Origin: Oligoflexus sp.
GTDB taxonomy: Bacteria; Bdellovibrionota_B; Oligoflexia; Oligoflexales; Oligoflexaceae
Reading direction: 5' to 3'
Assembly: GCA_041736305.1 (NCBI GenBank)
Contig: JBGSTX010000002.1
Location: 1-60,067, forward strand
Length of the DNA: 60,067 nucleotides
Positions 30,503 to 38,859 of this stretch are shown here, piece after piece. The notes under the pieces were generated by a model. That model had not been told where the DNA came from, ran no database searches, and saw nothing but the letters and a program-made list of their open reading frames with translations. How positions within the stretch are numbered: the stretch's first letter is position 1; the number at the start of each line of letters is the position of its first letter. Position numbers and translations under genes: made by a program.

Positions 30503-31477
30503 ATGCATAAAAGTCTAGCCGAAAATCCAGAAAATATTGGAGACTTCCGTCCTCTCGGACGGCCGATCGCTGCGCCTGACGCGGGCATGCGAATCGATGC
30601 CTATCTGGCCAAGAACTTCCGCTTTCTCTCGCGGGCCGCTTGGCAAAAGCGCCTTGATTCCGGGACTGTGCGCCTCGATGGAAGACCTGCGAACACTGCC
30701 CAGCGTCTGCAAGAAGGGCAGAATATCGACTATTTTTATCCCCTCGAAGTCGAGCCCGAAGTCGATCGCGGAATTTATCCGATTTGGCGCAAAGGAGCCG
30801 TCATGGCGGTGTTCAAGCCGGCTCCCCTACCCATGCACGAAAATGGCCCCTATCGGAAGAACACCTTCGCGACTCTCCTTCAGGAAGAGCTTGGTCCAGA
30901 ATGGGCTGCTGTTCATCGCCTCGATCGAGAGACTTCGGGCATAGTGCTGTGCGGAGCGACCTATGAAGTGAGGCGTGATCTGGCCCAGTCCCTCGCCAGC
31001 CGCAGTCTTCAAAAAGAATATCTGGCGATCGCACACGGCATCAGTAAGGAGCCCTTCTGGATCGCTGAAGGACCTATCGGTGATCTCAGTTCGAGTGAGA
31101 TCAGGATAAAAAAATGGGTGGTTTCCGGCGGACTTCCTTCCGAAACACATTTCCAGGTTCTTGAGCAAAAGCGGCAGCACATCCTCTTTCGGGCCTTCCC
31201 CAAGACGGGCCGTACCAATCAGATCAGAATTCACGCCGCCCACGCAGGTCATCATCTGGTCGGCGATCGGCTTTTCTACCCAGACGAGCAGGTTTTCTTA
31301 GAGTGGTATGTCGACGGTCTCAGCGAGCAGGTCATAGCTAAGACAGGTCACCGTCGCTGCCTCCTGCATGCTCACGCGCTGCATTTCGAGCATCCCGAAG
31401 ACGGGCGCAACTATGAAGTCCGCTGTCCCTTGCCTGAGGATATGGACACTTTCTGGGCCGGTCTGGATATAATTTAA
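30503..31477 (+). CDS. RluA-family pseudouridine synthase with S4 domain (RluC/RluD-like)
   Basis: GMRIDAYL S4 motif; HRLDRETSG; TGRTNQIRIH; LHA..L.F.HP. Confidence 0.93.
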   Translation: MHKSLAENPENIGDFRPLGRPIAAPDAGMRIDAYLAKNFRFLSRAAWQKRLDSGTVRLDGRPANTAQRLQEGQNIDYFYPLEVEPEVDRGIYPIWRKGAVMAVFKPAPLPMHENGPYRKNTFATLLQEELGPEWAAVHRLDRETSGIVLCGATYEVRRDLAQSLASRSLQKEYLAIAHGISKEPFWIAEGPIGDLSSSEIRIKKWVVSGGLPSETHFQVLEQKRQHILFRAFPKTGRTNQIRIHAAHAGHHLVGDRLFYPDEQVFLEWYVDGLSEQVIAKTGHRRCLLHAHALHFEHPEDGRNYEVRCPLPEDMDTFWAGLDII

Positions 31478-32895
31478 TATGAAGTCTGCCGTTGCCAGGC
31501 AGACTGGGCTTTCTGATAGATCTCGTCGAAACTAAGTTGATTCTGCCCTAATAGGACATCTGCTTCGAGACTCCTGAGTTGCGGCAGGCCCTCGATAATT
31601 TGCCGAATTCCCAGCAAACCATTGATGCGGTAAAGTACCTGAAAGAGATAGAAGCTTTGCTTGTAAGCTACCTGGGCTTCTGAACTCTGCAGCTGCAGAA
31701 AGCTTGCAGCAAACATCTCTGCTTTTAAAAAGGGCTGCTGCGTGGCAGCAAAGCTATAATTCCAGCAAAAATTCGGGCATTCAGCGACCTGAGCCAGGCC
31801 TTCTTGAAACCAAGTCGGCAGTGTGCGGCGATTGACCTGTTCGCTTAGCAAGGCGTGAGCCAGCTCGTGCCGAAGGACGCGGGCGAAACTATCATTCAAC
31901 TCCTGACCTTCGGGTACCGGAATGCGAATGCGGCCGTCGTAAATACCAGAAGCCCAAGTTGGACTGTGAGCTGCCTGTGCAAAATTCTCCACGCGGTGAA
32001 AAATGACTTCAATCGGATGTTCGGGTGAGTTGAAGCCAAGGTTCTGGACGAGCTGCTGCTCGCTGTTCTGTAGCAGTTCGAGCGCGCCTTCGACCAGTCC
32101 GATATGATCGCGAGGCTGATAGCGGATAATAAAATTACCCCCCTGAATCTCGCTCTGACTTTGACCTTCATCAGCCCGCGCAATGAGCCCACGTTCTCTC
32201 GTCTCAAGATCTTTGCCTTGGTCCGGGCTGAGGGAAGTGATCTCTCTCGCTTTCTGCGTTAAACTCAGAGCCTCATCTAAGGCACCCAATGATTCTTTGG
32301 CTTCAGCTAGCAGTATGTAAGCTTCAGGATCAGCAGACTTCTGCTCGGCATAACTCTCGAGATAGGTCAAAGCCGTCCACCAATCGCGTTTTTGAAGATA
32401 GCAAAAGCCGAGGCCTTTCAGCACGAGAGGGTCGGAATTCGTTTTCAAAAGCTCATCAAAAAGCGCTAATGCGTCTGGGCAGTTCTGCCGCCGAACCTGA
32501 GCCCAGGCAGCGCCAAGTTTGAGGGTGGGAAGCTGGCGGGCAAGCCATGCCTTGTAGCGTGGCGCCAAAAGCTCATCTTGTAGTTGCTTTTCAGCTAGAT
32601 TGAAAGCCTGGCCAAAATTCTCATCCGTAAAAAGCTTTCTAAGAAGGCGTTCAGCCTGGGCATCTTTCTCCTCGAGCTTGAGCTCATCGACCTTTTCTAT
32701 GGCAAGCTCGGGCGCGGCCAGAGAGAGGGGCTTGGCTTCCAAGGGCTCAGGTAGAAGCGAAAGGGGCAAATCCCCGGGTGTAGACTCCGAGAATGAGCTA
32801 TGCAATAAGGGGTTGCGATCTTGACTCGCAAAAAGGACGGCGGCGATAAAAAGTACCCACCGCAATCGACGAGATTTTCTGAGTTTAGGTTTCAA
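31474..32895 (-). CDS. TPR plus peptidase MA-like (gluzincin) metallopeptidase
   Basis: N-terminal TM; TPR helices; WASGIYDGRIR; HELAH...PTWFQEGLA; TTG start overlapping the grxC stop. Confidence 0.85.
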   Translation of the reverse strand: MKPKLRKSRRLRWVLFIAAVLFASQDRNPLLHSSFSESTPGDLPLSLLPEPLEAKPLSLAAPELAIEKVDELKLEEKDAQAERLLRKLFTDENFGQAFNLAEKQLQDELLAPRYKAWLARQLPTLKLGAAWAQVRRQNCPDALALFDELLKTNSDPLVLKGLGFCYLQKRDWWTALTYLESYAEQKSADPEAYILLAEAKESLGALDEALSLTQKAREITSLSPDQGKDLETRERGLIARADEGQSQSEIQGGNFIIRYQPRDHIGLVEGALELLQNSEQQLVQNLGFNSPEHPIEVIFHRVENFAQAAHSPTWASGIYDGRIRIPVPEGQELNDSFARVLRHELAHALLSEQVNRRTLPTWFQEGLAQVAECPNFCWNYSFAATQQPFLKAEMFAASFLQLQSSEAQVAYKQSFYLFQVLYRINGLLGIRQIIEGLPQLRSLEADVLLGQNQLSFDEIYQKAQSAWQRQTSY

Positions 32896-33133
32896 TAAGT
32901 TCCCCTTTTTTATGAAGAGTCTGCAACTCGTTGAATCCACCGATGAATTTGCCATCGATAAAAATCATGGGAACGGTACGGTAGTTGCCATTTTCTTCGG
33001 AAAGTTTTTGGCGTAAGTCGGGCTTGTCATCGAGACCTATTTCATCATATTTGAGGCCGACCTGACTGAGAAGACGCTTGGCTGAAGAGCAATAGGCGCA
33101 GACTCGGGTCGTATAAACTTTTATTTCTCGCAT
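32885..33133 (-). CDS. grxC: Glutaredoxin 3-like protein
   Basis: CAYC active site; TVPMIFIDGKFIGG. Confidence 0.93.
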   Translation of the reverse strand: MREIKVYTTRVCAYCSSAKRLLSQVGLKYDEIGLDDKPDLRQKLSEENGNYRTVPMIFIDGKFIGGFNELQTLHKKGELIET

Positions 33134-33224
33134 AGCGTTTTATCCTGTTTTCAAGTAGGGAATGAAAATCTGGCCACAAAGGGGTTTGGCGATCAAAAGC
33201 TCCCCATTTCTAGGGGGAATTCTA

Positions 33225-34373
33225 ATGAGCTCCGAAACGAACCGCAAGGACTTGTACGAGCTAGTTCGTCAGCTTCTGCAGACTGCACGCAGGCTCGAAG
33301 GCTTGGAGGTCCTGGGTCCCGACGACTCTACGGCAGCGGAACGCCTGCTCGAAATCGACGAGCGCGAGGGCCCGGTATACACCGCGCACTTGGCTTCCGA
33401 CGAGATGAATCTCGATCAAAAAATGCAGCTGGAACAAGTCGTCAAAACTCGCGGCCAGGAAGAGGGCCTTAAGCTCGCCGTTAACTTCAAGCGCCGCCGT
33501 TCCCTGGGAACCCGACTGGGAACGAGTCCAGCAACGCCGGCAGCTAGCCAATCTCCCGCAAACAACCCCTTTGGAGTAAAGCGCCGGATCAAACCAATCC
33601 CAGGCGTGAAGAAGATTATCGCGGTCTCCTCAGGCAAAGGCGGGGTCGGCAAATCCACAGTCTCGGTAAATCTGGCCGCCGGCCTAGCTATGCGTGGAGA
33701 ACGGGTTGGTTTGCTGGATGCCGATCTTTACGGTCCCTCTGCTCCCATGCTTTTCGGTGTTGAAGGGCCGATGCCTATTTCCGCCGATCAGAAAATGATC
33801 CCCCTAGAGCGTTTTGGAGTTAAGATTGTTTCCTTCGGATTTATGACAGATCCCTATCATCCCGTCATCTGGCGAGGACCGATGGTAACGAAGGCACTTG
33901 AGCAACTCTTCTACCAGGTGGAATGGGGGCAGCTCGATTATCTGGTGATCGACCTACCGCCAGGGACGGGGGACGTTCAGCTGACCATCATCGAAAATCT
34001 GCCGATCTTCGGCAGCATCATTGTCTCGACCCCGCAAGCTGTGGCGCTGCTCGACGCCCATAAGGGGCTTTCTATGTTTGAAAAATTGCGTGTGCCCGTG
34101 CTTGGCCTGGTCGAGAACATGTCGCACTTTCAATGCAGCGCTTGCTCCTATACCGACGATGTTTTCGGACAGGCTCAGATAGAAGAATTTGCGCGCCAGC
34201 GGCGGGTTTCGATTTTGGCGCGGATTCCGCTCCATCGCGTTATCCGTGAAGCATCGGACGGCGGCATTCCGCTGGTTCATGCCTCCCCTTCACACGCCCA
34301 CCCGTTTCTAGCTTTGGTCGATGCAGTCTTAGAACGAGGGATGTCAGAAATTCAGACATATGACCAAAAGTAA
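33225..34373 (+). CDS. mrp: Mrp/NBP35 (ApbC) Fe-S cluster carrier ATPase
   Basis: SGKGGVGKST, DADLYGPS, WRGPM, DLPPGTGD, ENMS..CSAC. Confidence 0.95.
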   Translation: MSSETNRKDLYELVRQLLQTARRLEGLEVLGPDDSTAAERLLEIDEREGPVYTAHLASDEMNLDQKMQLEQVVKTRGQEEGLKLAVNFKRRRSLGTRLGTSPATPAASQSPANNPFGVKRRIKPIPGVKKIIAVSSGKGGVGKSTVSVNLAAGLAMRGERVGLLDADLYGPSAPMLFGVEGPMPISADQKMIPLERFGVKIVSFGFMTDPYHPVIWRGPMVTKALEQLFYQVEWGQLDYLVIDLPPGTGDVQLTIIENLPIFGSIIVSTPQAVALLDAHKGLSMFEKLRVPVLGLVENMSHFQCSACSYTDDVFGQAQIEEFARQRRVSILARIPLHRVIREASDGGIPLVHASPSHAHPFLALVDAVLERGMSEIQTYDQK

Positions 34374-34463
34374 GAATCACATTCTCAAGAAATCATTGGG
34401 GAATACAGCCTTAGGAGCTTGCGCAATTCTGAGTGCCCGAAAGATTTTGAGCGCTTAAGCTCG

Positions 34464-34479
34464 TGGCACAATCGCTGCA
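34464..34479 (+). promoter_or_regulatory. Sigma54 (-24/-12) promoter
   Basis: TGGCAC-AATCG-CTGCA has exact GG-N10-GC spacing; no convincing gene follows on +. Confidence 0.7.
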
Positions 34480-34490
34480 AAAGGTAATAT

Positions 34491-34627
34491 GTCCGGACAT
34501 CGTCTGGACTGAAAGTTGGCTGAGCTGTCCCCGGATTTGAAATTATATTCAAATCATCCCCGTTGCTGCTGGTACCGCTCTTCCTCTCGCTGCTGTTTGA
34601 CTAACCAATCAGTTCAGCCAACTTTCA
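34491..34627 (+). ncRNA. Candidate sigma54-dependent structured small RNA (~137 nt)
   Basis: Predicted +1 coincides with hairpin GTCCGGAC/GTCTGGAC; 17-bp stem 34510-34526/34611-34627; internal 8-bp hairpin 34534-34555. Confidence 0.6.
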
Positions 34628-36659
34628 ACCCCCCGAGTTCTATTCGCGCTACGAGCTGCCCTACTAAACTCTCCAGAGCCTCTACAAAAGCCCTATCATT
34701 CAGATCATGCTGCCCCAACCAAAAGCATCCTGGCTGGCCTGCTGCGACTTTTTTCCAAAAGATGGAAAAGCTTTGCTCAGCTGCTGTGAAGCCAATACTG
34801 GGTACTTCGCTCAGAGACTGCCAGTTCTCTTCTCCAAATTTATCCATCATCCTTTGGATATGCCCTAGATTTTCAGCACTTGGAAACGTAGGGGATAAAA
34901 GCTTATGGTCTTCCCATATCATTCCTAGAGGGTTTTTCCCGTTGTATATCGTGAGGCAACCCGCCGGGCTCAGGAGCGGTACATGCTCCTGCAAAAGTGT
35001 GAGCAGCGCATCCTGGCTGAAGCACAGACTGATCCGCAGCAGCATTTCGTTGACGAGGGCGGTCTGGGTTACTGTTCGCTGGACTAATAGAGCTTCACGA
35101 CTGAGTAGCTCAAGGCTTTCAGCAGGTGGAGCTTCAGCAAAATCTGGATCGTCTAAATCTAAGTCAGTATCCTCGATAAGCTCTGAGTTGCCATCAGCTA
35201 ACGATGCCTCAAGGGGCTCCAGTCGGTCGTGACTCTCTGCAGCGAAGTCCAGGGCTGGCTCGGCTTGAAAATCTTCGAGCTCCGGCTCATCGAGAGTCTC
35301 GGACAGGTCGGCATCGAGTGAGGCCAGCAAAACATCGGAGGGAAGTGGCTCAGGATCTACGGCGGGGCCTTCGTCATCATCCAAGCTTTCCGCAAAAGCT
35401 TCGAGAGGGTCGTCTTCCGCCGCGATTTCAAAGGCGTCGGACATGCTTTCGTCTTCGAGGGATAGAGTAGGTTCTGGGGCTTTTGCGCTTTCAGCTTCGA
35501 TATCGGTATCGGTATCGGTATCGAGATCCCCAAATAGGTCGTCGCTACTGCTGTTTGCCAAATCCGCTGCAAAATCGGGTTCTGGCGCACTTGCTTCTAT
35601 CTCAGCTCCGCTCTCTGCAAACTCGCTACCGATAGGTTCAGATTCTGCATCAAGATCTGGCAAAGAATTATCAGCATCGCTATTCAAACTGTCGAAGGCA
35701 TCGAGCTCGTCGAGTTCGCCAATGCCTAGAGTCGAGTCGAGATCCAAATCATCCAGAGCTTGAGCGGCTTTCGAAGCTCCTTGAGAAGCCCTGGGTGCAG
35801 CATCCAGATCAGGGTCATCCAAAGCGCTATCCCAGATATCCTCGTCATTTCCATGTTTCAAAGCCTTGCCTGCGTCCTTTGTGGGCTGCTTGGCGTCCAA
35901 ACTATCCCCAAAATCGTCACCTATTTCAGCGCCACCGCCTTGATCAAGATCGAGTTCACCCCCGCTGCTGGCGTCGGTGAAATCTCCGGAATCAAAATCA
36001 TCCTCCGGGCCATTCTCGTCGAGAACATCGAGATCAGCTGAGGACGAGGAAAATTCATCCTCGTCTTCAAATGGAGACGAATTCTCGGAGCGAGCAGCGT
36101 TTCTCGAACTCTTCTTGCTACTGCGATCTTCGTCGAGCTCCTCGACCTCTTCGCCGAGCTTTTGTTTGACCCAGGCGCCTCCTGCGTGATTCTGCAGAAA
36201 CTTGGATAGATCTGAGTAGCGCGGTACAAACTCGGAATCGAGCCGCGTAAGACCTTCGTAAATCTGCGAGAGTGGGGCAATAATAGGCACTATTTCGAGG
36301 CCGGTAAAAAACTCGAGCTGCGCGATAGTCGCCCGATCGAGCGGATCTGCGACGGCTACCGTGAGCTTTTTTTCACTGAGGTGTAAGGGCAGAATTTCTA
36401 GTCGCGAACACATGCGGCGATCGATCTTTGGGGAGATATCAAGATCGAGTTTATGCAAAAAGTTTTTGGCTGCGACGCGATAGCGAGTACGCTCACCGAC
36501 AAAAGCAGCTAGTTCCTCCTCGTCGAGGAGCCCCATCGTCAGGATACTTTTGGCAAATGCCCAGCTGCCTTGACCGCAAGTTTTGTTGATGGTTAGCCGA
36601 TCCTGCTCGGTCAGCAGGCCTTCATTGACGAGCAGGGTTCCGAGGCCCGATGCTCCCAT
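34614..36659 (-). CDS. GspE/PilB N-terminal (MshEN-like) domain protein with a long Asp/Glu-rich disordered region
   Basis: LGTLLVNEGLL, ILPL...LTVAVADPLD...LEFFTG; very acidic central ~300 aa; no Walker motifs seen. Confidence 0.8.
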   Translation of the reverse strand: MGASGLGTLLVNEGLLTEQDRLTINKTCGQGSWAFAKSILTMGLLDEEELAAFVGERTRYRVAAKNFLHKLDLDISPKIDRRMCSRLEILPLHLSEKKLTVAVADPLDRATIAQLEFFTGLEIVPIIAPLSQIYEGLTRLDSEFVPRYSDLSKFLQNHAGGAWVKQKLGEEVEELDEDRSSKKSSRNAARSENSSPFEDEDEFSSSSADLDVLDENGPEDDFDSGDFTDASSGGELDLDQGGGAEIGDDFGDSLDAKQPTKDAGKALKHGNDEDIWDSALDDPDLDAAPRASQGASKAAQALDDLDLDSTLGIGELDELDAFDSLNSDADNSLPDLDAESEPIGSEFAESGAEIEASAPEPDFAADLANSSSDDLFGDLDTDTDTDIEAESAKAPEPTLSLEDESMSDAFEIAAEDDPLEAFAESLDDDEGPAVDPEPLPSDVLLASLDADLSETLDEPELEDFQAEPALDFAAESHDRLEPLEASLADGNSELIEDTDLDLDDPDFAEAPPAESLELLSREALLVQRTVTQTALVNEMLLRISLCFSQDALLTLLQEHVPLLSPAGCLTIYNGKNPLGMIWEDHKLLSPTFPSAENLGHIQRMMDKFGEENWQSLSEVPSIGFTAAEQSFSIFWKKVAAGQPGCFWLGQHDLNDRAFVEALESLVGQLVARIELGGLKVG

Positions 36660-36846
36660 CTTATTTCCTTTCCGAGACTTAGCTCGCAGCAATAAGCGCC
36701 CCATCCGTCTCGGCAGGCAAGAAGGTGGGCGCAGCAGGTACTAAGTTCACTTGGATTATGCTAGGCAAATGGCTGTAAGACCTATACTATCACAGTTTAC
36801 CGTCTAGCGGTTTTATGCGCTATTTTGGCCGAAATCAGGGGAGCTT

Positions 36847-37689
36847 ATGTCCAGCGACGTAACGACGAAGATCAAAGGTCTGGATGCATTCCAGGCAAAG
36901 TTCATAGAGTTTTTGTCGAAGGTCTCGCAGAATCCCAAACCCATCTTCGCTGGACTGGGACTTCTACTAGCAGCTCTTGCAATTGCTTATGGAGTATCGA
37001 CCTTTGTTTCAAAAAAGCAGGAAAACCGTCGCGTAGAACTGTCGAAAATCGATTTGGTTTTTGATGAGGAAATAAAGAACCTCAGCCAGCAGCGCGAAGC
37101 TCTCGAGAAGAAGAGGGCCGCACTCCAGGCTACCCCCATCAATCCCGAAGCTAAGCAAGCAGAAGCAGAAGCAGTACCCGCCGCTGAAACGCCCGAAGTC
37201 AAAGCTCTCGGTGAGCAGATTCAGGCCCTGAAGCCAGATCACAAAAAATCCTCGGGACTCTATCAAGAATTCTACAATAAATACCCGACCAGCGCCGAAG
37301 GCATGTTGGCAGGGATCCGCTATGCGGCTTACGTAGCAACGGAAGAAAAGAAACTTGATGAGGCCCAGAAGGTCCTGGAGCAAGTCGTTGGTAATGCGCA
37401 GAAGCAGAACCTGACGATACTCGAAGTGCAAAGCTCCCTCCTGCTGATCTCTATCCTCGAAGACAAAGGCGAGTTCGACAAGGCTCTAGCCCAGACCGAC
37501 AGTCTGATGAAGAACTCGTTTTCCGAATTGAAACCGACTGTGCTTCTCAGCCAGGCACAGATTCACTTTATGAAAAAAGACTATGCAAAAACGCAAGAAA
37601 CTCTGAATAAACTTCTGAGCGAGTATGCGAATAGCATGGAAGCGGAACGCGCCAAAAACCTCTTGGCACTAGTCCCGCAGCAAGGATAG
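36847..37689 (+). CDS. YfgM-like TPR membrane protein
   Basis: Single N-terminal TM, coiled coil, YP...EG and TPR helices; directly upstream of a bamB-like gene. Confidence 0.75.
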   Translation: MSSDVTTKIKGLDAFQAKFIEFLSKVSQNPKPIFAGLGLLLAALAIAYGVSTFVSKKQENRRVELSKIDLVFDEEIKNLSQQREALEKKRAALQATPINPEAKQAEAEAVPAAETPEVKALGEQIQALKPDHKKSSGLYQEFYNKYPTSAEGMLAGIRYAAYVATEEKKLDEAQKVLEQVVGNAQKQNLTILEVQSSLLLISILEDKGEFDKALAQTDSLMKNSFSELKPTVLLSQAQIHFMKKDYAKTQETLNKLLSEYANSMEAERAKNLLALVPQQG

Positions 37690-37692
37690 ATC

Positions 37693-38859
37693 GTGATATT
37701 TAGGTTCATAGCTCTCGTTTCCGTCTTATGTGCCCCTATTGCTTCCCTGCGAGCCGCAGAGAAGAATCCCTGCGAACCAGCAGGGGCTAAAGCCGAAGCG
37801 GGGACAGATAAGGTCACCAGCGAGGCCGGTTGCCGCCCTTTTAGAACGGGCTTTCTCAAGCTGGCGCCTGAACTCGATATGACCAAACCTCTGGGGATGA
37901 TCGACGAAGCCGGCTGGAGCGTCGCCTCGAATCTACTGATTGGTTCTATCGATCCTTCGTGGGTGGTTGGCTATGAGCTGAGCAAGAAGAAAGTAGCCTG
38001 GTGGCTGAAGACCGATACGGATCTTACAGCGCCCATAGAAATACTAGGTAGCTGGGCCCTGCTCGCCCTCCGCGATGGCCGTATTCTCAAAGTCGAGACA
38101 AAAACAGGCAAGGTCGTGTGGGAGGCCAGGCTCAACCGCTTTGTTTCATCTCGTATGGCCCTATCCGGGACCACCTTGCTGGCTTACACGGTCGACCAGA
38201 AGCTATTCGGTCTGGATTTTCAGTCAGGTCAGAATCTCTGGGTCTATGATGGAGGATTGCCTAGCGCGTTGCTCCTGCGAAGCGCAGCCGGTCCGGTCGT
38301 TTCGGGCAACGACGTTTACATCGGAACCTCAGAAGGTGAGGTCCATGCCGTGGCTTTGGCTACAGGCAAAGAACTCTGGCGCATGGACGCCGGAGGTGAG
38401 GACGCTCGTTTTCGCGATGTGGTAGGCGATATAGGCATTGGTCAACATCAGATCTACGTAACGCGTAACGATGGGACTGTTTTTGCTCTCGATACTTTAT
38501 CCCGACCTTCGGAGCCACTCTGGAAGGAAAAGTTTCCGAGCATCACAAGTTCAGCCTATAGAGATGGAACCCTCTACGTCGGCTGCTTAAATGGTGACCT
38601 CATCGCTCTTCAAGCCGTTTCTGGTCGACAGCTTTGGAAGGTCAATCTCGGGCAGTCCGTAAAGTCTCTGACTATCGGTGAAAGTGCTATTTTCGTCGGT
38701 GGGAGCCAGGGGAGGGTCACAGCCCTCTCGAATGCAAGCGGCGGCCTACTCTGGCACGACGATCTGCGAGGAATCCTCACCCGTCAACCGGTGGTAGTCG
38801 ACGAGCAGATCTACTTTGCAACAGGTCTTAAGGTTCTCTACGGTTACAAAATTCTATAA
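37693..38859 (+). CDS. bamB: BamB-like PQQ-repeat beta-propeller
   Basis: Repeats of the A(L/V)...(T/S)G...W type; RFRDVVG motif; yfgM synteny. Confidence 0.78.
   Translation: MIFRFIALVSVLCAPIASLRAAEKNPCEPAGAKAEAGTDKVTSEAGCRPFRTGFLKLAPELDMTKPLGMIDEAGWSVASNLLIGSIDPSWVVGYELSKKKVAWWLKTDTDLTAPIEILGSWALLALRDGRILKVETKTGKVVWEARLNRFVSSRMALSGTTLLAYTVDQKLFGLDFQSGQNLWVYDGGLPSALLLRSAAGPVVSGNDVYIGTSEGEVHAVALATGKELWRMDAGGEDARFRDVVGDIGIGQHQIYVTRNDGTVFALDTLSRPSEPLWKEKFPSITSSAYRDGTLYVGCLNGDLIALQAVSGRQLWKVNLGQSVKSLTIGESAIFVGGSQGRVTALSNASGGLLWHDDLRGILTRQPVVVDEQIYFATGLKVLYGYKIL

Follow-up and report, generated by a model that had tools for sequence, protein, structure and literature searches.

The locus and its features

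The DNA examined here is a 60,067-nucleotide stretch of an Oligoflexus sp. genome (GenBank assembly GCA_041736305.1, contig JBGSTX010000002.1, positions 1 to 60,067 of the forward strand), referred to below as the window. Within it, a 240-bp gap at 34374-34613 separates a plus-strand gene (33162-34373) from a minus-strand gene (34614-36704), and the two genes converge. An earlier reading made without database searches (the sequence-only reading) had proposed that the gap holds an orphan sigma-54 promoter driving an undescribed, structured regulatory RNA on the plus strand. At the level of sequence, this proposal is strongly supported by promoter conservation, covariation, strand preference, terminators in relatives and the outcome of an Rfam search. 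In our view, the locus is probably an independently transcribed gene for a small regulatory RNA of at least ~140 nt, sigma-54- and enhancer-dependent, acting independently of Hfq, and belonging to a new family confined to the order of the window. The features of the locus are as follows.

34342-34358, no strand assigned: candidate enhancer (upstream activator site), the palindrome TGTC-N9-GACA, 123 bp upstream of the -24 GG
34464-34479, plus strand: sigma-54 (-24/-12) promoter TGGCAC-N5-CTGCA, a sequence match that is kept in relatives
34490-34627, plus strand: predicted small RNA of at least 138 nt, from its fold (z -6.0), covariance-model matches and covariation
34491-34509, plus strand: 5' terminal hairpin GTCCGGAC-ATC-GTCTGGAC (GTCCGGAC-AUC-GUCUGGAC as RNA), 8 bp, from the predicted fold
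34510-34527, plus strand: 5' arm of the closing helix, core GUUGGCUG, from the predicted fold and covariation
34534-34555, plus strand: inner hairpin GAUUUGAA/UUCAAAUC (arms 34534-41 and 34548-55), from the predicted fold
34556-34609, plus strand: pyrimidine-rich, G-poor single-stranded region with CCCC, GYUGYUG and CUCUUCCUCUC motifs
34610-34627, plus strand: 3' arm of the closing helix, core CAGCCAAC, from the predicted fold and covariation
33162-34373, plus strand: upstream neighbour, an Mrp/NUBPL-type P-loop ATPase (Pfam PF10609, 3e-92)
34614-36704, minus strand: converging neighbour, a 696-aa protein with an MshEN domain at residues 87-156 (Pfam PF05157, 1.9e-14)

The -24/-12 promoter is kept upstream of the RNA

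TGGCAC occupies 34464-34469 and CTGCA 34475-34479, with the GG at 34465-66 and the GC at 34477-78. This is the canonical -24/-12 spacing of the sigma-54 consensus TGGCAC-N5-TTGCW and confirms what the sequence-only reading had claimed for the convergent gap. By chance, 0.07 copies of the promoter pattern TGGCAYNNNNNYTGCA would be expected in the 60-kb window; there is one, and 7 of 100 shuffles contained one or more. Simple scans of the gap returned no sigma-70-like promoter and no terminator. The genome encodes rpoN (one Sigma54_DBD gene) and 15 strong enhancer-binding ATPase (Sigma54_activat) genes. Genome-wide, 62 TGGCAY-N5-NTGCW sites were counted, 41 of them intergenic on a crude map of open reading frames (86% coding), and 34 of these 41 are followed, after 31-225 nt, by a co-directional gene. 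On this basis, the motif is a marker of real promoters in the genome.

Relatives of the RNA were found with covariance models built from the RNA part alone, starting after the promoter. TGGCAY-N5-NTGCW was present directly upstream in 31 of 33 inspected matches, and the two exceptions scored worst (E 0.0035 and 0.018); this count leaves out another eight weak places found with the class-wide model R3. Among the newly found places, the promoter stood upstream in 4/4 for model R1, 15/17 for R2 and 5/5 for R3. Since the promoter had been left out of the models, its presence is an independent check on RNA homology. The logo of the 31 loci reads T31 G31 G31 C31 A31 (C25/T6) N5 (C17 G9 A4 T1) T30 G31 C31 A28, where the search expression had fixed only part of the positions. 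The sequence-only reading had allowed that motif and stems might fail to be conserved; both are kept. These data strongly support a promoter of its own, putatively sigma-54-dependent, for the RNA gene.

Other sites in the genome also deserve mention. A second orphan sigma-54 motif, TGGCATTCGGATTGCA, lies outside the window on contig C128 (plus strand, from 4264) and is followed by a ~150-nt structured, pyrimidine-rich stretch ending in a hairpin and a T-run (z -3.2 against mononucleotide shuffles); this stretch may be another sigma-54-dependent small RNA. Five more orphan motifs were seen, two of them apparently before small open reading frames missed by the crude gene map. A RapZ-like gene lies directly downstream of rpoN (contig C114, 11260-12264). 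The enterobacterial rpoN operon has the same rpoN-RapZ arrangement.

Predicted fold, covariation and strand of the RNA

With the promoter at this position, transcription would start at about 34490, roughly one base before the 5' hairpin. The plus strand of the RNA region folds at -51.2 kcal/mol, compared with -30.8 +/- 3.4 for shuffled sequences (z -6.0), and none of 200 shuffles was as good; for the minus strand, z was -2.57 and 2 of 200 shuffles were as good. The structural elements read from the sequence alone were all recovered. The 5' hairpin is present at the predicted start, and the long enclosing stem comprises 18 bp in the predicted fold (34510-34527 with 34610-34627). The inner hairpin has TCCCCG on both sides, and two GCTGCTG copies flank CTCTTCCTCTC in the loop. 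As read from the folds, ~27 of 31 homologues have a 5' hairpin after the promoter, its sequence varying between them, and the consensus of the inner hairpin is GGUUUGN...NCAAACU. The loop at 34556-34609 is largely unpaired in the centroid fold. In all 26 homologues compared it measures 55-63 nt and is 62-80% pyrimidine, with G and A each at 15% against 25% in the flanks, and among homologues each loop carries 3 to 8 YUG triplets. We presume this pyrimidine-rich loop to be the effector region, as a seed or as a binding site.

Both helices showed covariation. In a MAFFT alignment of 11 sequences, 94.5% of the cells form pairs, and compensatory changes are seen at 10 of 20 pairs, a result matched by 0/500 shuffles; slid controls on the same alignment pair at 26-51%. 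An alignment of 26 sequences, which was fitted to the model and is therefore biased towards it, showed compensatory change at 19 of the 20 pairs. The 12 pairs of the closing-helix core were compensatory at 6 positions in the MAFFT alignment and at all 12 in the fitted one, and the 8 pairs of the inner hairpin at 4 and 7, respectively. No reading frame was conserved across homologues.

The G-U pairs and the model scores favour the plus strand as the RNA strand: the model scored 173 bits forward versus 28 bits in reverse, and several pairs are G-U on the plus strand that would be C-A on the opposite strand. Furthermore, intrinsic terminators follow the closing helix directly, on the RNA strand, in six relatives (genomes G014, G015, G074, G010, G071 and G055).

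Distribution of the RNA in the class Oligoflexia

Among 60 relatives searched with BLASTN, six genomes belonging to the genus of the window had the region, with an invariant promoter and compensatory changes in both helices. The covariance models then matched the RNA at three levels.

Model R1, family: 11 of 22 genomes matched
Model R2, order: 26 of 95 genomes matched
Model R3, class: 38 of 131 genomes matched

All 38 genomes matched by R3 belong to the order of the window (95 genomes), and R3 gave no match in 36 genomes of three other families. Of seven named Oligoflexus/Oligoflexaceae records it matched six, one of them O. tunisiensis Shr3, in which the RNA (locus L040, 4284-4434) is found ~170 nt downstream of Mrp. 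The window's genome has just one copy of the element. The sequence-only reading had asked for covariation across Oligoflexia, and the helices show it over the aligned matches, which come from one order. Absences are soft because most of the genomes are incomplete metagenome bins. As the element is kept in many genomes of one order, it is very probably a real regulatory RNA.

The apparent absence of the RNA from six Oligoflexus genomes proved to be partly an artefact of sensitivity, as G003, G005 and G010 carry a divergent version after Mrp. This version (loci L146, L147 and L145, respectively) was missed by the covariance models. It has the promoter variant TGGTAC-N5-TCGCA, a closing helix that begins directly at the 5' end, an inner hairpin GGTTCGA/TCGAACC and a pyrimidine CCCTTTCCAAGCTGC loop; in G010 it is followed by a strong terminator. 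In G075 (L080, 1104-1239 and 1501-1646), two tandem copies of the RNA lie ~400 bp apart, each with a TGGCAC-N5-GTGCA promoter. G072 (L087, 666-832) gave a weak R2 match (E 0.0035) with no recognisable promoter and with an expanded (YTG)n run of ~60 nt as its loop, and may be a decayed or expanded copy.

The Rfam scan that had been proposed as a check found no family matching the RNA, with all families searched at E up to 10 for the window region and at E up to 1 for nine relatives. 6S RNA was considered and rejected, as it sits elsewhere in the genome (contig C367). Our literature search found no paper on small RNAs or on sigma-54-dependent RNAs in Oligoflexia.

A palindrome at a fixed distance and a candidate activator

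The palindrome TGTC-N9-GACA lies at about -147 from the inferred start, within the last codons of the Mrp/NUBPL gene, and its position falls in the range of ~80-150 bp expected of upstream activator sites. In 15 of 26 loci, which come from several families, a palindrome with at least 7/8 bases was found 122-125 bp upstream of the GG, compared with 0 to 2 of 26 in control windows. A perfect palindrome was found at this distance in 11/26 loci and in 0/26 for each of two control windows. In the whole genome, palindrome and sigma-54 motif co-occur only at the RNA locus; a search with an N10 spacer returned one unrelated site that pairs with a relaxed promoter. We consider TGTC-N9-GACA a candidate upstream activator site for a sigma-54 activator.

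In loci of families f13, f11 and f7 (for example L073, L079, L083 and L085), another conserved motif, ~cTTAACyCnyGAw, lies between palindrome and promoter, ~20-45 nt ahead of the -24 element. Oligoflexus itself lacks this motif, whose reverse complement loosely resembles the IHF consensus WATCARNNNNTTR.

The genome encodes a GlrR-like activator that matches the GlrR model NF011695 over its full length with 613 bits, below the cut-off of 763; the next-best family scored 415. It is encoded after a histidine kinase and a putative lipoprotein. On contig C96 (8543-12038; L114, 5544-9039) the module comprises the kinase (475 aa), the 184-aa putative lipoprotein, which has a coiled coil and no family match, and the activator (452 aa). 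The module resembles qseE-qseG-qseF, a gene order given in PMC8745638, and recurs with a homologous small protein in G018. The regulator is attractive because the half-sites match and because of the form of the operon. Strong GlrR-like genes were found in Oligoflexus, in four other genomes of its family and in family f3. They were absent from the RNA carriers of families f13, f6, f7, f8 and f11 and from the carriers G015, G016 and G020, and they are present in f3 and G017, where the RNA was not found. A search with the DNA-binding end of the regulator alone returned only matches of 46-51% identity in other families, and the best one in G031 belongs to a different type of operon. Because its phylogenetic profile is unlike that of the RNA, the GlrR/QseF-like regulator is kept as a lead only, and we regard it as a doubtful, if attractive, activator of the RNA promoter.

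Proposed mode of action

We propose the following sequence of events. An enhancer-binding ATPase would bind TGTC-N9-GACA ~147 bp upstream of the start and activate sigma-54 RNA polymerase at TGGCAC-N5-CTGCA, so that transcription begins near 34490. The RNA would fold with a protective 5' hairpin and a long closing helix, which would present the inner hairpin and the pyrimidine-rich, G-poor single strand of 55-63 nt. This strand, with its CCCC, CUCC and GYUG motifs, would pair with purine-rich ribosome-binding regions of target mRNAs without Hfq and alter their translation or stability. Where the MshEN-domain gene abuts, the RNA may also act in cis on the 3' end of its mRNA. Processing of the RNA by RNase III is speculation.

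Base-pairing through the pyrimidine-rich loop, independent of Hfq, is the most likely mode in this scheme. Hfq was not found in any of six genomes (one of them a single contig), and ProQ was not found in the one genome searched. CsrA is present in the genome; a role of the RNA as a CsrA sponge was rejected, as it has no conserved GGA loops.

Several observations weigh against an independent, base-pairing RNA gene. In the window's own genome, the terminator scan found no terminator after the helix, which leaves the RNA there without a defined 3' boundary; its transcript could extend into the MshEN gene as antisense RNA. The conservation of the 3' arm within the genus is explained in part by the coding constraint of the overlapping gene. 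A target search did not single out an mRNA: a duplexfold search with the whole RNA was uninformative, and crude duplexes of the loop with 4220 start regions, themselves crudely called, were broadly distributed without an outlier. In this weak ranking glmS stood at 0.21 and the MshEN gene at 0.22, and the starts of glmS, MshEN, Mrp and the kinase operon ranked at 0.19-0.69. Perfect 12-nt matches to the loop were found at two ribosome-binding sites, those of MazG-like and ScpB-like genes (named by eye from their translations); relatives do not keep the part of the loop concerned. Sequence conservation in the helix cores (GGCUG/CAGCC) and YUG repeats exceeds what pairing needs, which would fit a protein-binding RNA equally well. 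Finally, in one genus (g20) of family f13 a gene in the same direction follows 83-95 nt downstream, so that a leader role is possible there.

As a separate observation, two to three tandem units of ~24 nt (containing GATAGCAAACAGCAGCCATCACG) were seen on contig C266 (~90-180) of the same genome, upstream of a small gene whose translation looks MazG-like by eye; these repeats contain an 11-nt complement to the RNA loop.

The RNA might instead work as a protein-binding decoy or sponge that titrates or recruits an RNA-binding protein through its helix cores and GYUG/YUG motifs, as CrcZ and GlmY reportedly do in other bacteria. We give this explanation a small share of the probability. Across families, there is almost no variation in the cores GUUGGCUG/CAGCCAAC or in the motifs CAC and ACUGUC-GYUGYUGCUG, and the YUG triplets recur in every loop and are expanded to (YTG)n in one weak homologue. 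A RapZ-like gene stands next to rpoN, and the crude searches found no convincing mRNA target. Against a decoy, no candidate for the binding protein was identified. CsrA, the sole known global RNA binder found, would be expected to need GGA motifs, which are missing from the loop, and Hfq and ProQ were not found in the genomes searched. Pyrimidine-rich loops are, moreover, typical of base-pairing RNAs that mask ribosome-binding sites.

Going further, the RNA could be the dedicated output of a conserved Oligoflexia pathway that senses envelope or lifestyle, in Oligoflexus a kinase, lipoprotein and sigma-54 activator of the QseE-QseG-QseF/GlrK-GlrR type, with a single enhancer driving a single Hfq-independent riboregulator. 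It would have evolved independently, in a different phylum, as a counterpart of GlmY/GlmZ or Qrr and would be coupled to the c-di-GMP-receptor-like MshEN gene that it faces in three families. This extended picture is a long shot. The same signalling-output RNA could also act as a protein decoy via the invariant helix and the YUG repeats.

Neighbouring genes and possible effects in cis

The Mrp/NUBPL gene runs in the same direction as the RNA, carries the candidate enhancer inside its 3' end and stood upstream of the RNA in 10 of the 11 loci found first. In the converging 696-aa protein, MshEN is the sole Pfam domain; NCBIfam matches were to the PilB N-terminus and to the cyclic di-GMP region of NfrB. 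A relative of this protein converges on the RNA in 15 of 31 loci (11 in family f1, three in f14 and one in f6). In the other 16 the neighbour is unrelated, including a GH48 protein, an aldehyde dehydrogenase, a C39-like peptidase and an unknown protein, among others. In genus g20 of f13 the downstream neighbours are a C39-like peptidase gene in the direction of the RNA and a RimK-like gene. No downstream gene common to all homologous loci was found. Since neighbours vary among loci, the RNA is not tied to one gene. The flanking parts of the window (31474-33133 and 36847-38859) hold housekeeping and envelope genes, namely those for a TPR/peptidase_MA-like protein, glutaredoxin 3, a TPR_21 (YfgM-like) protein and BamB. 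The TPR protein and glutaredoxin genes also adjoin the RNA in G016, where Mrp is missing from the locus.

The recurrent pairing of the MshEN gene with the RNA is notable, and the gene is a possible cis partner. As the sequence-only reading had stated, the 3' arm of the RNA is antisense to the end of this gene: it overlaps the stop codon and the last four codons. The element could be mainly a device acting in cis, by antisense pairing (a duplex open to RNase III cleavage) or by transcriptional interference at the 3' end of the MshEN gene. A converging stop codon lies -21 to +36 nt from the RNA end in most loci, an MshEN-domain neighbour recurs in three families, and in the window no terminator separates RNA and gene. 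The antisense overlap is real, yet not universal across the RNA family, and structure and promoter are kept in the 16 of 31 loci with an unrelated neighbour. G014 has a terminator between RNA and gene. Moreover, simple antisense needs neither an elaborate conserved fold nor a loop of conserved composition. We judge a mainly cis-acting device to be unlikely.

Less probable still is a 5' leader or cis element of a downstream gene in the same direction, or an element of the 3' untranslated region of the Mrp gene. In six genomes of g20 the C39-like peptidase gene with its start 83-95 nt downstream would suit a leader, as would different same-direction genes starting at 74 nt in G073 (g20) and at 124 nt in G031 (f11), and the co-directional Mrp gene upstream would suit a 3' element. 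However, the element has its own promoter, and its next gene is a converging one in the window as in the majority of loci. Six relatives have a terminator after the RNA, and which gene lies downstream varies from family to family.

It is highly improbable that there is no gene here, with the helices serving as a terminator or 3' structure of the converging mRNAs and the sigma-54 motif arising by chance. The position between converging stop codons, the fold of the minus strand, which also exceeds its shuffles, and the chance occurrence of the promoter pattern in 7 of 100 shuffled windows are what such a view could draw on. It is contradicted by conservation, in that the motif is kept in 31 of 33 homologous places in several families, together with the upstream palindrome; in addition, the helix in the window has no T-run behind it, whichever strand is read, and one strand is preferred by G-U pairs and model scores. 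That the (YTG)n-rich loop encodes a small Leu- or Cys-rich peptide was rejected as just as improbable. The loop has YTG periodicity and few stop codons, and one frame reads ...RCCCS... in several members, but neither an ATG nor a ribosome-binding site is conserved, even close relatives differ in frame, start and length, the genus shows indels of 1-2 nt, and conserved RNA helices enclose the region.

Significance

For Oligoflexia, the literature search turned up no described small regulatory RNA, and the RNA has no Rfam match; Oligoflexia appear to lack Hfq and ProQ. The family makes up a testable circuit, with a sigma-54 promoter, an enhancer-like site at a fixed distance, a conserved fold and a pyrimidine-rich loop as presumed effector. 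As the RNA is present in the cultured type strain O. tunisiensis Shr3, it provides an entry point into RNA regulation in the phylum, and the family is suitable as a new Rfam entry.

Comparison with other small RNAs

The family allows the repeated origin of circuits that combine sigma-54 with a small RNA (Qrr, GlmY/Z, Pxr and CrcZ) to be compared. As to the loop, RsaE/RoxS of Firmicutes and RepG of Helicobacter use, as proposed here, unpaired C/U-rich loops to pair with G-rich ribosome-binding regions independently of Hfq. They are unrelated to the Oligoflexus RNA in sequence, promoter type and phylogeny, with no Rfam match.

Pxr of Myxococcus has a sigma-54-type promoter and is a small RNA with multiple stem-loops from a non-enteric lineage of social and predatory bacteria. 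It belongs to a different phylum, does not match the Oligoflexus RNA in Rfam at E up to 10, and consists of serial stem-loops, whereas the Oligoflexus RNA has a closing helix around a multiloop. CrcZ/CrcY of Pseudomonas (CbrB/sigma-54) are enhancer-dependent and carry repeated short single-stranded A-rich motifs that bind Hfq/Crc. The repeats of the Oligoflexus RNA are, by contrast, pyrimidine-rich GYUG/YUG; Hfq was not found, and there is no Rfam match.

The Qrr RNAs of Vibrio (LuxO/sigma-54) are shorter than the Oligoflexus RNA and Hfq-dependent, and the LuxO enhancer has a different sequence. Qrr RNAs are sigma-54- and activator-dependent, according to 10.1101/2021.07.01.450815. Several copies can occur, as in the one relative of the Oligoflexus RNA with two tandem copies, but the two differ in that no Rfam match was found and Hfq was not found in the six genomes searched here.

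GlmY and GlmZ of Enterobacteriaceae (GlrK-GlrR/QseE-QseF) are likewise sigma-54-driven small RNA genes. Their Rfam families, RF00128 and RF00083, respectively, did not match the Oligoflexus RNA. According to PMC3045617, their activator recognises TGTCN10GACA palindromes upstream of the promoters, with IHF sites in between. The half-sites TGTC and GACA are identical to those of the Oligoflexus palindrome, and the Oligoflexus genome has the kinase-lipoprotein-regulator order of qseE-qseG-qseF given in PMC8745638. The differences are that GlmY/GlmZ have three sites with a 10-nt spacer (PMC3045617) and the Oligoflexus RNA one site with a 9-nt spacer, that the Oligoflexus RNA gene is unlinked to the kinase operon, and that by crude duplex energies its RNA has no outstanding complementarity to glmS. 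The RNA is a new family within a known kind, the sigma-54-dependent small RNAs.

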